In this document: piece by piece, positions 325 through 53,407 of the stretch | Layout: the number at the start of each line of letters is the position of its first letter | How positions within the stretch are numbered: position 1 is the stretch's first letter | From: Betaproteobacteria bacterium | GTDB lineage: Bacteria; Pseudomonadota; Gammaproteobacteria; Burkholderiales; SG8-41 | Direction: 5' to 3' | Length of the DNA: 64,000 nt | Assembly: GCA_900299145.1 (NCBI GenBank) | Contig: OMIN01000098.1 | Location: 6,081 to 70,080, forward strand | The notes under the pieces: generated by a model | What the model was told of the DNA's origin: nothing | The model's input: only the letters and a program-made list of their open reading frames with translations | The model's database searches: none | Position numbers and translations under genes: made by a program

Positions 325-1321
325 GAAAATAGGTAAGTATTTGTTTTCCAAGACAATTTATATCACGGTAGCCTTCACGTTCGTTGTTGTCGTGGTGGGT
401 GCATTCGTGCGCCTGACCAATGCCGGCCTTGGATGCCCCGACTGGCCGGGCTGCTATGGCCAGCTGACGCCCGCGCACGCCGCACAGGACATCGCCCGCG
501 CGGTGGCGGAACAGGGTGGCACGCACGGTCCGGTTTCCGCGCAAAAGGCGTGGCACGAAATGGTGCATCGCTATCTTGCCGGGACGTTGGGTCTGTTGAT
601 ACTCGGCATTGCGATAACGGCGTGGGTCAAGCGCAAACAACAATCGCCCTGTTTGCCGACCGTACTGCTGGCGCTGGTGATTTTTCAGGCTGCATTGGGC
701 ATGTGGACGGTGACTTTGCTGCTAAAGCCGGTGATTGTCACGCTGCATTTGATGGGCGGCATGGCGACACTGGCCCTGATGACGTGGCTCGCGGCGCGAC
801 ACTTGTCGTTTAAGCCACCGGCAGACATTGCACTCCAGCCATGGGCCGCGCTGGGCCTTGCGTTGCTCGTGGCGCAGATTACGCTCGGCGGCTGGGTTAG
901 CACCAATTACGCGGCACTGGCCTGCATTGATTTGCCGCAGTGTCATGGGCAGTGGCTGCCGAAAATGGATTTTCAGCATGGCTTTCAGATATTCCGCGAA
1001 CTGGGTCAGACCGCCGCAGGTGACAAGTTAAGTTACGATGCACTCACGGCGATCCACTGGACACATCGCGTGGGCGCGGTGGTGGTGACGCTGTATCTCG
1101 CCTGGCTCGCGTGGCGGGCTGCCAAGGTAGCCGGGCTGCGCGGCATGGCCGTTGCCGTGGGCGTGCTCTTGGCGGCGCAGGTGACGCTGGGTGTAAGCAA
1201 TATTCTCACCGGGCTGAACCTTGCCGTGGCGGTCGCGCACAACGCGGGCGCCGCGTTATTACTGGCGGCGATGGTGGTGCTAAACTTCGTCCTTTTCAGG
1301 GGATCAAAGACGCAGGATTGA
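317..1321 (+). CDS. ctaA: heme A synthase (COX15/CtaA family)
   Basis: 334-aa polytopic membrane protein with the GLGCPDWPGCYG motif typical of COX15/CtaA. It precedes ctaB. TTG start overlaps the upstream stop. Confidence 0.9.
   Translation: MDKKIGKYLFSKTIYITVAFTFVVVVVGAFVRLTNAGLGCPDWPGCYGQLTPAHAAQDIARAVAEQGGTHGPVSAQKAWHEMVHRYLAGTLGLLILGIAITAWVKRKQQSPCLPTVLLALVIFQAALGMWTVTLLLKPVIVTLHLMGGMATLALMTWLAARHLSFKPPADIALQPWAALGLALLVAQITLGGWVSTNYAALACIDLPQCHGQWLPKMDFQHGFQIFRELGQTAAGDKLSYDALTAIHWTHRVGAVVVTLYLAWLAWRAAKVAGLRGMAVAVGVLLAAQVTLGVSNILTGLNLAVAVAHNAGAALLLAAMVVLNFVLFRGSKTQD
333..349 (-). repeat. AT-rich dispersed element copy, core only, inside ctaA codons ~6-11
   Basis: Minus-strand reading is GGAAAACAAATACTTAC, which matches the core AAAACAAATAsTTAC. 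It forms a local AT island in a GC-rich gene. Confidence 0.6.
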
Positions 1322-1402
1322 GGAATGGGCACGACCCCGTGCCTGGCCTCAACTCGCCCAGTCCTCAGTCGCCGATCCTCAGCCTAAAATCTTCCGTTAG
1401 AA

Positions 1403-2302
1403 ATGTCTTCTGCCACCGCCAACGCTTCCACTGGCTCGCGCGCCTATCAGTTCTACCAGCTGACCAAGCCGCGCGTAGTGTCCCTGATCGTATTTACCGC
1501 GATCATCGGCATGCTGCTGGCCGTGCCCGGCATGGTGGCGTTGCAGCCGTTTCTCGCGGGCACCGTGGGAATCGCGCTGGTGGCCGGCGCGGCGGCGGCG
1601 GCGAATTGCCTGGTTGAACAAAAAATTGACGCGGTGATGGCACGCACGCGTGCCCGCCCTTTGCCGCGCGGCACGCTGACGTCGCTGCAAACGCTGGTGT
1701 TTGCCTGCGTGGTCGGCGGCGTCGGCCTTGTGCTGCTATACGTGTGGGTCAACCCGCTGACCATGTGGCTGACCCTGGCCACGTTTGTTGGTTACGCCGT
1801 GATTTATACCGTGATACTCAAACCAATGACGCCGCAGAATATCGTGATAGGCGGGGCGTCCGGCGCCATGCCGCCGGTGCTCGGCTGGGCGGCGATGACG
1901 GGTGAAGTCACCGCCGAGGCGCTGACGCTGTTTCTGATTATCTTCGCTTGGACACCGCCGCACTTCTGGGCGCTGGCGCTCTACAGACGTGACGAGTACG
2001 CCAAGGCCGGCATCCCCATGTTGCCGGTGACGCACGGCGAAAAATTCACGCGGCTCAATCTGTTGCTCTACACCATCATTCTGGTGGCGTGTTCGCTGTT
2101 GCCTTTCACGGCCAAGTTGTCGGGGCTGATTTATCTCGCGTCGGCGCTGGTGCTGGGCGTGGGCTTTCTGGTGTACGCGATTCGGATTTATCGCGAATAC
2201 AGTGATCAACTCGCGCGCAAGACCTTCCGTTACTCGATCGTGTATCTCACCGTGCTGTTCGCGGCGCTGTTGATCGATCACTACTTTCGCATCACGCTGT
2301 AA
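1403..2302 (+). CDS. ctaB: protoheme IX farnesyltransferase (heme O synthase)
   Basis: 299-aa UbiA-type prenyltransferase with multiple TM helices, sitting between ctaA and SCO. Confidence 0.92.
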
Positions 2303-2306
2303 CGGT

Positions 2307-2912
2307 ATGCGCGCCATGAAATATTTTGTGGCGGCGTGGGTGGCGGTCTTATTGCTCTCAGCTTGCGGCCCGCAACCATCGGGCGGCGTGAAATTCCAGA
2401 ACACCGATGTCACCGGCGCCGATTTCGGCAAGGGTTTCGCGCTGACCGATCACACCGGCAAGCCGCGCACGCTGGCGGATTTCAAGGGTAAGCTGGTGGT
2501 GATGTTTTTCGGCTATACGCAATGCCCCGACGTGTGTCCGACCACACTCGCTGAAATGGCCAAGGTCATCAAGGAACTCGGTCCCGACGGCGACAAAGTT
2601 CAGGTGCTGTTCGTTACCATCGATCCAGAACGCGATACGAAAGACCTTTTAAAACAATATGTTACGGCATTTCATCCCGGCTTCCTCGGCCTGGCCGGCG
2701 ACATGGAAGCCACCGTGCGCGCGGCCAAGGAATTCAAGGTTTACGTGCAAAAGCAGCAGCCCAAAACACCTGGCGGCAGCTACAGCGTGGATCACTCGGC
2801 GGGGACGTTCATCCTCGACGGGCAAGGCCGGCTGCGCCTGTTCGTGAACCACGGCGCGCCCGCCGCTTCGCTTTTGGCTGATATTCGCACGCTGCTGAAA
2901 CAGGCGTCGTGA
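2307..2912 (+). CDS. SCO1/SenC family copper chaperone
   Basis: CPDVCP motif in a thioredoxin-like fold, with a signal/lipoprotein-like N-terminus (LLLSACG). Confidence 0.9.
   Translation: MRAMKYFVAAWVAVLLLSACGPQPSGGVKFQNTDVTGADFGKGFALTDHTGKPRTLADFKGKLVVMFFGYTQCPDVCPTTLAEMAKVIKELGPDGDKVQVLFVTIDPERDTKDLLKQYVTAFHPGFLGLAGDMEATVRAAKEFKVYVQKQQPKTPGGSYSVDHSAGTFILDGQGRLRLFVNHGAPAASLLADIRTLLKQAS
2649..2665 (+). repeat. AT-rich dispersed element copy, variant core, inside the SCO gene
   Basis: TTAAAACAATATGTTAC encodes LLKQYVT with all-AT-rich codons. It is closest to the copy at 25649 (AAAACAATTAGTTAC). Confidence 0.55.
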
Positions 2913-52388: not shown

Positions 52389-53321
52389 TTAGAACGTTTT
52401 CTTGATGAAAACGGTGCCGGTGGTTTTGCCGGTGTTGTGGGGGAACGGCCCGTTGATGCCGGCGATGCCGGGGGGTTCATTGATGGCGCCGTAACCAAGT
52501 TTGTTCAGACCGCTGGTACCTGAGGCAAACGCGCCGATGCTGAAATCCTTGGGTAGCGCGTAGGTCAAGCCGATTTTCCAATCGGAATACGAGAAAATAT
52601 TGTCGTTGCTGCGCGGCGTCGCGGCGGTAGGATGGGTGACAATCGTGCCCTTGTAGGTCTGGCGGCCGTAGTGCAGGTTGGCCGTCAACCCGGTTTCACC
52701 CAACGGAATGTCCGCAGACAGATCAAGGTAATGCGTGCCGCTGGAGTTGGGTACGCCGAAGGTATGGTTCATCAGACCATGGGAGTACTTGAGCGTGATC
52801 CATTTCCAGCCGATGGCGCCGTAGAGTTCCAGCGTGTCGGCCTTCGGACAGGCAGTGGCGATGGTCGAGCCGTATTGGCAGCCTTGTGCGACCGATTTCA
52901 CATCGCCCGGGTACCAGTAATACAACAGACCGACGTCGTAAGTGAAATCCGTTTTGCCGAACGTCGACTTGTAACCGCCATAAATATCAATTTCGACGCT
53001 GCCGCCGCTGGCGTATTGCCCGGTGATCGTGGCCGGCGGCGTACTGAAGTTCTCTTTCAGCCAGCTGATGTTCGACGCCCACGTGCCCAGATAAAAGCCG
53101 CTCGAATGCGAGTAGTCGAATCCACCTTGAATCGCCGGCTGACGGTCGGTCTGTGTCAGGCCGCGGAATATGTACTGGCTAAACAATCCGACATTACCGG
53201 TAAAAGTGTGGTCTGATGCCGGTGCGGCTGGCGCTGCCGGCGCTGCGGGCGTTTGCGCCAGCGCGGTACCGGCGGCAAATGCTGTTGTGATCAATCCCGA
53301 AATAATCGCCTTCTTGAACAT
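52389..53321 (-). CDS. TorF family putative outer-membrane porin
   Basis: Signal peptide, then [20 protein letters not shown]...GGFDY pattern, ending in F. It is the first gene of the glnK-amtB unit. Confidence 0.75.
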
Positions 53322-53359
53322 GGTAGAGCCTCCCGTTAATTAAACTGCATTGACGTAAA

Positions 53360-53375
53360 AGCACATAGCGTGCCA
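53360..53375 (-). promoter_or_regulatory. sigma-54 (-24/-12) promoter candidate
   Basis: Minus strand reads TGGCAC-GCTAT-GTGCT (consensus TGGCAC-N5-TTGCW), ~40-55 nt upstream of the porin ATG. A GGAGG Shine-Dalgarno lies in between. Confidence 0.7.
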
Positions 53376-53377
53376 GT

Positions 53378-53407
53378 GAAAATATATCAATAAAATCATA
53401 TATTTAC
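53378..53407 (+). repeat. AT-rich dispersed element copy (variant with ATCA core)
   Basis: GAAAATATATCAATAAAATCATATATTTAC. Located between the sigma-54 promoter and the NtrC-like sites. Confidence 0.75.

Follow-up and report, generated by a model that had tools for sequence, protein, structure and literature searches.

The 64,000-nucleotide stretch analysed here, hereafter the window (contig OMIN01000098.1 of assembly GCA_900299145.1, from a betaproteobacterium), raises the question of why a short AT-rich element should recur so often in DNA with a base composition of 60.5% G+C, and which protein might read it. A first-pass annotation had described this element as a dispersed repeat present beyond chance expectation, and our scans agree: the core AAAACARATAGTTA, allowing up to 2 mismatches, matches 15 times in the window, compared with 0.19 matches expected from dinucleotide shuffles, and far above the 0.25 and 0.7 expected, within the window, from order-3 and order-5 Markov simulations, respectively. 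With a 33-bp position weight matrix (PWM) built from the copies, 17 sites in the window reach 20 bits or more, and zero do so in any shuffled or Markov simulation. Our tentative interpretation, to which we give somewhat less than an even chance, is that the element may constitute an array, evolved in place, of high-affinity sites for integration host factor (IHF) or a similar DNA-bending nucleoid protein.

Architecture and placement of the element

Sixteen strong copies (12 on the plus and 4 on the minus strand, 36–54 bits) are distributed over the window, together with one weak copy at 53578. The annotation had counted 18 (12 plus, 6 minus), of which 16 are upheld; its copies at 2649 and 32303, and a degenerate candidate at 42572, score only 4.8, 9.6 and −19 bits with the PWM and were dropped. 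In the following list coordinates are the starts and ends of PWM matches, bit scores are those of the PWM scan and gene identities were obtained via Pfam; L numbers denote the database loci that we compared.

329..361, minus strand: copy, 37.8 bits; between a small upstream open reading frame (ORF; ends at 324) and the COX15/CtaA gene
6602..6634, plus strand: copy, 51.6 bits; between two TctC receptor genes
10913..10945, plus strand: copy, 38.5 bits; in the divergent gap between an enoyl-CoA hydratase gene (minus) and prmA (plus)
13932..13964, plus strand: copy, 54.4 bits; fills the 48-bp gcvH-dgkA gap; orthologous copy in L121, L123, L124 and L125
16003..16035, minus strand: copy, 51.5 bits; in the gap between pfkB and an acyltransferase gene; orthologue in the same orientation in L121–L124 and L126
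19288..19320, minus strand: copy, 40.8 bits; in the gap between a BTLCP (LapG-like) gene and lapD; invariant block in 6 species
21462..21494, plus strand: copy, 49.2 bits; downstream of lapD
23752..23784, plus strand: copy, 49.5 bits; between an amine-oxidase stop codon and the 5′ end of a GDSL lipase gene; kept in L249 (16546)
25640..25672, plus strand: copy, 43.7 bits; the TAG of the copy is the stop codon of an MFS gene, with a TctC gene downstream
27693..27725, plus strand: copy, 51.3 bits; intergenic
31289..31321, minus strand: copy, 53.1 bits; within the coding sequence for methylcrotonyl-CoA carboxylase beta (mccB; 30493–32109, minus)
34508..34540, plus strand: copy, 36.3 bits; abuts the start codon of a nitronate monooxygenase gene (minus) in a divergent gap
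38854..38886, plus strand: copy, 47.4 bits; abuts the start codon of an acyl-CoA dehydrogenase gene (minus) in a divergent gap
44224..44256, minus strand: copy, 46.5 bits; abuts the ATG of a PCuAC gene (44255, plus) in a divergent gap
48103..48135, plus strand: copy, 48.8 bits; between a BNR-repeat gene and an AhpC/TSA-like gene
53379..53411, plus strand: copy, 46.7 bits; has T at +3 (AAATCATATATTTA); lies upstream of the comM 5′ fragment, in a divergent gap
53578..53610, plus strand: weak extra copy, 21.7 bits; T-at-+3 variant

A weak orthologue of the 38854 copy is also present in L249 (6447), between MBL-fold and acyl-CoA dehydrogenase genes. Copy density in the window is 0.29 per kb up to position 54347; from 54348 to 64000, a stretch that includes a 5.7-kb serine-recombinase island in comM, no copies were found, and the absence of the element from this island, which the annotation had regarded as foreign DNA, stands.

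Alignment of the copies gives the window consensus tAAAAaa.tcAATAAAAACArATAgTTAy.t.t, an asymmetric, AT-rich element of 33–40 bp. Counted from the core, conservation spans −14 to +18; the AT-rich footprint has sharp edges and measures about 40 bp, in keeping with the unit of roughly 30–40 bp originally proposed. The layout is a 6-bp A-tract, an 8-bp spacer (N8), wAaCAr, four bases (N4, usually ATAG or ATAC) and TTA, and this register is preserved across 117 pooled copies. All 16 window copies have C4, A5, T11, T12 and A13, and 15/16 have A or G at R6. The A-tract, which occupies −13 to −8 and ends 12 nt before the C of the core, corresponds to the second A-tract that had been noticed upstream, and the shared 18-mers also recur as described, AATAAAAACAAATAGTTA being identical in three copies and CATTAAAACAAATAGTTA in two. 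N4 is strongly conserved among intergenic copies. Spacers fall into two discrete subtypes, TCAATA and CGTTTA, the second of which is enriched in copies antisense to the downstream gene (10/34, versus 5/70 in the other classes).

The annotation had described the element as non-tandem and without dyad symmetry, and we reach the same view: folding of six copies as single-stranded DNA revealed no hairpin potential (0 to −1.8 kcal/mol, with z-scores between −0.35 and +1.28 that do not improve on shuffles), and the window copies show no dyad symmetry, terminal inverted repeat (TIR), target-site duplication (TSD), linked ORF or tandem arrangement. Inverted pairs of copies were not found. An intrinsic terminator was rejected as a candidate, given the lack of hairpins in the copies and of any terminator-like site adjoining a copy in a generic scan. 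Independent samples from ENA, JGI and Logan yielded six contigs with the same region, copies included (99.95% identity), and the element is therefore not an assembly artefact, a possibility that the annotation had raised; at this identity these same-strain contigs (L001–L006) are uninformative for comparison.

The codon model used for gene calling recovers the genes supported by Pfam. On these calls, 15/16 window copies are within or border an intergenic gap and 1/16 is inside a gene, which preserves the placement given in the annotation (intergenic, or on stop or start codons) and revises its tally of 14 out of 18. Among 121 pooled copies, 8 (~7%) lie within coding sequences, the other 113 being intergenic or at the edges of genes. 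Copies typically occupy very short gaps, where they overlap or adjoin the stop codon before them and often have the following start codon within 30 nt. Co-directional gaps contain 35 copies that are sense and 34 that are antisense to the genes, divergent gaps hold 22 and convergent gaps 13 of the pooled copies, and gap occupancy is alike for each type (co-directional 64/214, divergent 22/72, convergent 9/41). Flanks pooled by context class contain no conserved signal beyond the ~40-bp AT-rich unit and no partner at a fixed distance. Copy orientation shows no relation to the GC skew of the surroundings (47 to 59, p = 0.29), and a polar chromosome motif of the KOPS or Chi type was rejected on this ground.

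Two ORFs that open upstream of copies would read through the element (at 48093–48140 and 23751–23795) as the putative N-terminal peptides MNRRNFLIKTNSYITMGAAL (twin-arginine-like) and MKTLIKTNTYVLCLLCLTLLAGC (lipobox-like), and these putative extensions have extremely atypical codon usage (10^-11 and 10^-13.6). The lipase gene call in the source annotation of L249 takes in the element.

Copies recur in the window about every 3.5 kb. Spacing there is more even than random (coefficient of variation (CV) 0.39; p = 1.5e-4 against a uniform null), also when compared with random choice among the 41 real intergenic gaps (p = 0.006), and the minimum distance is 1888 bp. In the window and syntenic loci together there are no pairs less than 1.5 kb apart (7.7 expected; the loci are not independent). 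The full-strength copy in the middle of mccB is kept despite the presence of gaps of ~100 bp nearby, and nearly bisects the interval 27693–34508.

Since most copies fill short stop-to-start gaps, the element could in principle act in RNA, as an unstructured AU-rich translation enhancer (a site of the (ARN)n type for S1 or Hfq) or as a point of entry for RNase E; in the sense direction it runs AAU AAA AAC AAA, equivalent to four ARN triplets, and copies are less structured than shuffled sequence. We nevertheless hold this to be very improbable: both orientations are used equally, which gives unrelated RNAs and speaks against an Hfq (ARN)n site, orientation is fixed per site yet differs between sites, divergent and convergent gaps are occupied too, and AU-richness needs no strict sequence conservation. 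Rfam 15 covariance models, run over the whole window on both strands, gave 0 matches at the gathering score.

Promoters were likewise considered and rejected. Read as a sigma-70 promoter, with TTAAAA-N17-TAGTTA / TAyrww as the −35 and −10 elements, the motif has poor hexamers and the key −10 T in just 6/16 copies, its orientation to the downstream gene is 50:50, and the pooled flanks contain no conserved hexamers. Sigma-70-like sites with 16–18 bp spacing number 8 in 20 kb, against 5.6 expected, and only one of them touches an element, so that the generic scan gives no coincidence between the two. The reverse complement of the motif does not fit a Bacteroidota-type promoter (TAnnTTTG), and the organism is a betaproteobacterium.

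Conservation across relatives and origin in place

The gene content of the window is that of a Burkholderiales betaproteobacterium, and look-ups of exactly matching proteins placed it in metagenomes only. We scanned with ATAAAAACARATAGTTA, using one genome per species; counts of assemblies are lower bounds. The element is present on multiple contigs of at least 24 species-level metagenome-assembled genomes (MAGs) of uncultured freshwater Burkholderiales/Betaproteobacteria, which rules out its confinement to the window, another possibility the annotation had allowed for; AT-rich taxa, among the matches listed, gave single matches only, as expected by chance. Fifty-seven 8-kb loci of the clade contain 88 copies of at least 30 bits, with 2–4 copies each in 26/57 loci, and 57 loci of other taxa contain none beyond the seed copy. 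The consensus pooled over the clade is the same as that of the window. Ten loci fetched via their proteins, not via the motif, carry 0.06–0.29 copies per kb (0.15 per kb overall), with the lowest density in the most distant relatives. A literature search for the element's sequence returned nothing relevant, and no prior description was found.

Several element-bearing lake MAGs with 57–61% GC (those at L009, L017, L022, L030, L045, L048, L089 and L101) are titled 'Bordetella parapertussis'; because they carry the element of the freshwater clade at this GC content, the label looks wrong. A phage-borne element was rejected after a scan of viral contigs, which gave single chance matches in AT-rich phage DNA (median GC 34%) with one exception. 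The exceptional contig, L182 (IMGVR_UViG_3300028178_000003, GC 43%), has six related repeats, CTAATAAAATCAAATAGTTA, in both orientations within ~500 bp (5088–5620); this cluster looks like an iteron or origin array and was probably found only because one repeat matches the 17-mer query.

Syntenic loci were compared in relatives whose PrmA proteins have 84, 81, 80, 78, 75, 74, 73 and 69% identity. Four junctions share a copy and its orientation in 4–8 species, namely those upstream of dgkA (+) and of the acyltransferase gene (−), and the BTLCP/lapD (−) and cutA/dsbD (−) junctions, the last of which lies outside the window. At the lapD junction the copy forms an invariant block within a spacer that varies in length and sequence. 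Where genes upstream have been gained or lost, the copy stays beside the downstream gene (dgkA and the acyltransferase gene); in L126, where another gene stands between it and dgkA, the copy is decayed (17.6 bits), and in L128, the most distant locus, the dgkA copy is absent and the other copies are weaker. These few cases are only suggestive of a tendency for the copy to track the downstream gene. The same positional conservation is seen in a second region: in L249 the GDSL lipase gene likewise has a copy at its 5′ end, and the weak orthologue of the 38854 copy is there too. From these comparisons, copies look selected, as if purifying selection held them at fixed positions and orientations.

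Toxin-antitoxin modules (PIN/MazE and BrnT/CopG-like) are located between the acyltransferase and metallophosphatase genes in L121 (15220–15917) and L124 (15213–17378). The inserted segment in L124 ends with a full-strength copy (17294, 52 bits), at a junction where the other species have none. At the aroQ-accB junction, a weak pseudo-match, AATAAAAACATGGACTTACG (17–19 bits), recurs at L121 6053, L122 8070, L125 7893, L127 8069 and L128 8054; it was rejected as a true copy, as it contains the accB start and first codons (MDLR..), which are conserved for coding reasons.

Copies inside genes indicate how the element originates. Across the mccB copy, the protein aligns gap-free to solved homologues (9tps, aisnlnrkkpdsihrv; 3u9r). 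In a set of 120 database MccB homologues, essentially all of those at 79–88% identity, and several at 75–77%, carry IKNINKN(K/N)x-L(Y/H)I, and in more distant homologues a segment of the same length is rich in Ala, Gly, Pro and Arg. The peptide IKNINKN persists in dozens of orthologues, and the copy is kept at the DNA level in L249 (83% identity) and L250 (75%), scoring 38–39 bits. The window copy has the rare codons AGA (0.8% of those for Arg) and TTA (1.8% of those for Leu) at motif positions, and its codon choice is ~1000-fold less likely than is typical for its peptide. Other coding copies are also in frame. One, in FbiC, covers residues 382–393 of 769, about the midpoint of the protein and presumably the CofG/CofH junction; one more sits in what we take to be a threonine-dehydratase-like protein. 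In eight relatives the reverse-complemented element forms codons ~4–14 of the DsbD signal peptide (MRKLRNYLFLLYF), with AT-rich Leu, Phe and Tyr codons that the window genome, and presumably those of the relatives, avoid. These copies are as follows.

dsbD copies: L121 3092–3124, L122 5129, L123 4986, L124 5102, L125 4757, L126 5018, L127 5112, L128 5094

Taken together, the gap-free coding alignments, rare codons and persistence imply that copies arise in place by substitution and are imposed at the DNA level, and origin by substitution combined with long persistence excludes copy-and-paste mobility. The annotation was correct in noting tolerance inside coding DNA and the lack of a linked ORF, coding copies having been substituted, not inserted.

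These observations bear on the reading that the element is a miniature mobile or selfish repeat, resembling REP/BIME, miniature inverted-repeat transposable elements (MITEs) or Correia elements and spread by a transposase. Many dispersed, near-identical and mostly intergenic copies, the two sequence subtypes and a Y1 transposase gene in the L125 locus would suit such a repeat, but the copies have no hairpin, TIR, TSD or linked ORF, those in coding DNA align gap-free with homologues that do not contain the motif, copies are fixed at orthologous sites in species with PrmA 69–84% identical, and 33 bp is shorter than any known MITE (100–200 bp; PMC2229807). REP/BIME and MITEs (ERIC, RUP, RPE) are similarly abundant and mostly intergenic, and RPE can sit in frame within genes; however, they are stem-loops and/or bear TIRs and insert as blocks, whereas this element has neither feature and leaves the length of the host protein unchanged. 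The stable stem-loop characteristic of REP/BIME was not seen in the six folded copies, nor were the TIRs, TSDs or 100–200-bp block of MITEs (Correia, ERIC, RPE), the unit being 33–40 bp without conserved flanks. A mobile repeat is thus already largely refuted and we give it next to no probability; the annotation was right in its own judgement that the element is not the end of an insertion sequence or MITE and belongs to no named repeat family. The Y1 transposase gene (L125 568–1308; IS200/RAYT-type, PF01797) has no palindromic REP-like partner that we could see nearby.

Candidate readers of the element

At ~35–40 bp, the element is about as long as the stretch that IHF protects. The lambda att string AAAAAA-GCATTGCT-TATCAA-TTTG-TTG, the H′ IHF site, has the same register as the element (strings were verified). 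Like the element, H′ and canonical IHF sites are asymmetric, non-palindromic, AT-rich and ~35 bp in length, with the order A6, N8, W-A-x-C-A-R, N4, T-T-R; the element has CAR, four bases and TTR in a fixed register and, as in lambda H′, an upstream A/T tract about one helical turn away. The IHF consensus is WATCARnnnnTTR, with WAWCAACnnnTT and WWCARSnnnTT as the consensuses determined in vivo (PMC8407004). The in-vivo consensuses have W at the third position, and the one position at which the element deviates is therefore only a W. As in the in-vivo logos, the C, A and TT of the element are invariant, and a minority of copies are exact matches: position +3 is A in 138/150 copies and T in 12/150, and the T copies match WATCAANNNNTTR exactly. 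N4 is ATA followed by G or C in 51/81 A-at-+3 copies, as against 2/12 T-at-+3 copies (Fisher p = 0.004, in a set free of selection bias); this relaxation of N4 fits compensation, with a single binding energy that would be under selection. In three mccB orthologues the A-tract, TCAATAAAAACAR and TTA are in register and N4 differs (ATAC, TGCG, TATG). The shared register, the W position, the apparent compensation at N4 and the mccB orthologues favour an IHF-type reader.

On this interpretation the most likely binder would be the host IHF heterodimer, or another protein of the IHF/HU family, which would bend the GC-rich chromosome sharply about every 3.5 kb. Such bends could punctuate the chromosome, by forming small loops or providing topological or transcriptional insulation, and the bound protein may also adjust expression of the adjacent gene. 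Point substitution would create sites on the spot, mostly at gene boundaries and in a few permissive coding segments, namely the DsbD signal peptide, the poorly conserved MccB stretch and about the midpoint of FbiC. We infer the identity of the binder, the bend and the physiological role only from sequence.

Two known systems provide a comparison. The E. coli RIB/RIP elements (BIME-1) are dispersed repeats carrying an IHF site. The 155-bp Correia element of Neisseria, which is almost exclusively intergenic, binds IHF in vitro (PMC2229807). Both share with our element, where the site is predicted, a repeated intergenic disposition, an IHF or IHF-like site and unclear architectural or regulatory roles, but in RIB/RIP and Correia elements the site is a module in a larger palindromic or TIR-bearing mobile or REP unit, whereas here the predicted site is the whole element.

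Several observations weigh against an IHF-type reader. The textbook T of WATCAR is absent from most copies, the third consensus position being A in about 87% of them, and so the earlier proposal of an IHF-type site is supported by the register, the upstream A-tract and the T-at-+3 variants and falls short at this base. IHF is not known to need anything like the conservation seen in the N8 spacer and N4; this, together with the two spacer subtypes, suggests a more sequence-specific reader or an extra constraint. Canonical IHF sites are degenerate and tied to promoters, origins and att, whereas the element is near-identical at 0.15–0.3 copies per kb; extrapolation of the window density would give ~1000 copies per genome, and we know of no genome with ~1000 near-identical stand-alone IHF sites. 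Copies in DNA encoding signal peptides and enzymes are not obviously of use to an architectural protein. A search of 635 kb of clade DNA recovered neither an IHF nor an HU gene, and independent 8-kb loci show no significant repulsion between copies, so that the regular spacing in the window was not reproduced. Finally, all of the population-level signatures suit an uptake signal equally well (PMC2817400).

The degree of conservation raises a different reading, in which the element is the operator of another sequence-specific DNA-binding protein with a very large regulon; this we think unlikely. The protein might be a lineage-specific nucleoid protein or an OmpR/PhoB-type winged-helix regulator, the latter binding head-to-tail on three ~10-bp phased units, AAAATAnTC, AATAAAAAC and AAATAGTTAC. 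At least 19 positions are conserved, including N8 and N4, which are dispensable for IHF, the ..AC ends are phased at 10 bp, there are two discrete spacer subtypes, and copies tend to stay by the 5′ end of the downstream gene (dgkA, acyltransferase gene), all as might be expected of an operator; AAAAC-N5-GTTAC also appears to us to resemble OmpR half-sites. However, G10 and C14, which an OmpR-type reader needs, are among the least conserved positions of the core (10/16 each) and the invariant positions are instead TTA and CA, and the OmpR-like tandem site was rejected for this reason. For any operator, the presence of copies in convergent gaps (9/41) and inside genes, the 50:50 orientation to the regulated gene and the lack of a promoter partner at a fixed distance are unfavourable.

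The second of the functions suggested in the annotation, an uptake-type 'self' tag, would make the element the motif preferred by the clade's competence machinery, comparable to the uptake signal sequences (USS) of Pasteurellaceae and the DNA uptake sequences (DUS) of Neisseriaceae and spread genome-wide by mutation plus biased uptake and recombination wherever it is tolerated. Such sequences are present in 200- to 1000-fold excess, occur in both orientations, are more evenly spaced than random, arise by mutation and recombination instead of insertion, are under-represented in coding DNA, fall at poorly conserved residues and are absent from genes without homologues in relatives (PMC2817400). 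The element resembles them in many respects. It is short and non-palindromic, over-represented more than 20-fold and shared as one motif across the clade, with a density that drops with phylogenetic distance; its copies originate by mutation, not insertion, are similar in number in both orientations with no tie to gene or replication strand, are under-represented in coding DNA, lie at poorly conserved residues where they are coding, and do not occur in the acquired 5.7-kb island. Copies of the window are spaced more evenly than random (CV 0.39), and those of the independent 8-kb loci show no significant effect. The newly inserted accessory segment of L124 bears a full-strength copy at its edge; the window has comM, albeit interrupted, and L249 has a TfoX_C gene. 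Helically phased AT-tracts are a further feature of the H. influenzae USS.

The remaining comparisons make an uptake signal distinctly unlikely in our view. USS and DUS occur at 0.8–0.9 per kb, are 35–65% coding and, when intergenic, are often inverted pairs (PMC2817400), compared with 0.15–0.3 per kb, ~7% coding and no inverted pairs for the element; the earlier suggestion thus finds agreement in mutational origin, orientation and absence from the island and differences in density, coding share and inverted pairs. The sequence is unrelated to USS and DUS, is AT-rich in a GC-rich genome, has a density 3–5-fold lower and forms no inverted-pair terminators; its conserved length (33–40 bp, ~45 bits, with A-tract phasing) is about 3-fold greater and far above that of known uptake cores. 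The match to the IHF register and the behaviour of CAR-N4-TTR would have to be coincidence, uptake sequences are documented in the literature only for Pasteurellaceae and Neisseriaceae, and comM is disrupted in this strain. A search for competence genes in the 635 kb of clade DNA gave nothing useful, with only the interrupted comM and the L249 TfoX_C gene seen.

Neighbouring genes and significance of the element

The comM/yifB-like gene of the window is split into a ChlI-domain ORF (53700–54347) and an ORF with Mg_chelatase and Mg_chelatase_C domains (60059–60991). comM encodes a transformation-related helicase and is a classic target for islands. The ~5.7-kb island between the two halves has lower GC, an A skew and zero element copies, and contains the following genes.

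54505–56073: large serine recombinase, comM island
56702–57295: small resolvase, comM island
57875–58714: unknown ORF, comM island
59556–60062: SNase-family nuclease, comM island

In L249, the carboxyltransferase gene is followed immediately by a gene for a 78-residue TfoX_C-domain protein (11614–11850) that is absent from the window; proteins of the TfoX/Sxy type are regulators of competence in other bacteria. Elsewhere in the window, a tRNA-Arg(CCG) gene at 18449–18525 lies between a cytochrome c gene and the BTLCP (LapG-like) gene, and long ORF calls across it are therefore spurious at their 5′ end. Periplasmic receptors of the TctC/Bug family number at least 5 in 64 kb (5606–9793, 25733–26761, 35284–36336), and more are found in the loci of relatives.

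We found no earlier account of stand-alone, non-mobile and near-uniform IHF-like sites at such a density, and if this reading of the sequence holds they would be new. A near-uniform array of strong bending sites would then mark gene boundaries in a GC-rich chromosome, and would offer an unusually clean natural system for the study of sequence-specific nucleoid proteins, with respect to loop size, insulation and the coupling of neighbouring genes. It would also show how strongly selection at the DNA level can prevail over codon choice and mould signal peptides and poorly conserved protein segments. Were the element an uptake signal, sequence-biased transformation, for decades known from two families, would be extended to abundant lake bacteria. 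The clade would then represent a third independent lineage with this trait after Pasteurellaceae and Neisseriaceae, an outcome we regard as rather doubtful; the signal would be without precedent in Burkholderiales and in free-living freshwater bacteria, no earlier one would combine AT-richness with a GC-rich genome, and its bendable layout, similar to an IHF site, would reflect the needs of the DNA receptor or of passage through the secretin. Under either reading, the motif provides a sharp sequence marker for this clade of uncultured freshwater Burkholderiales and supplies a directly testable 40-mer for binding in vitro.

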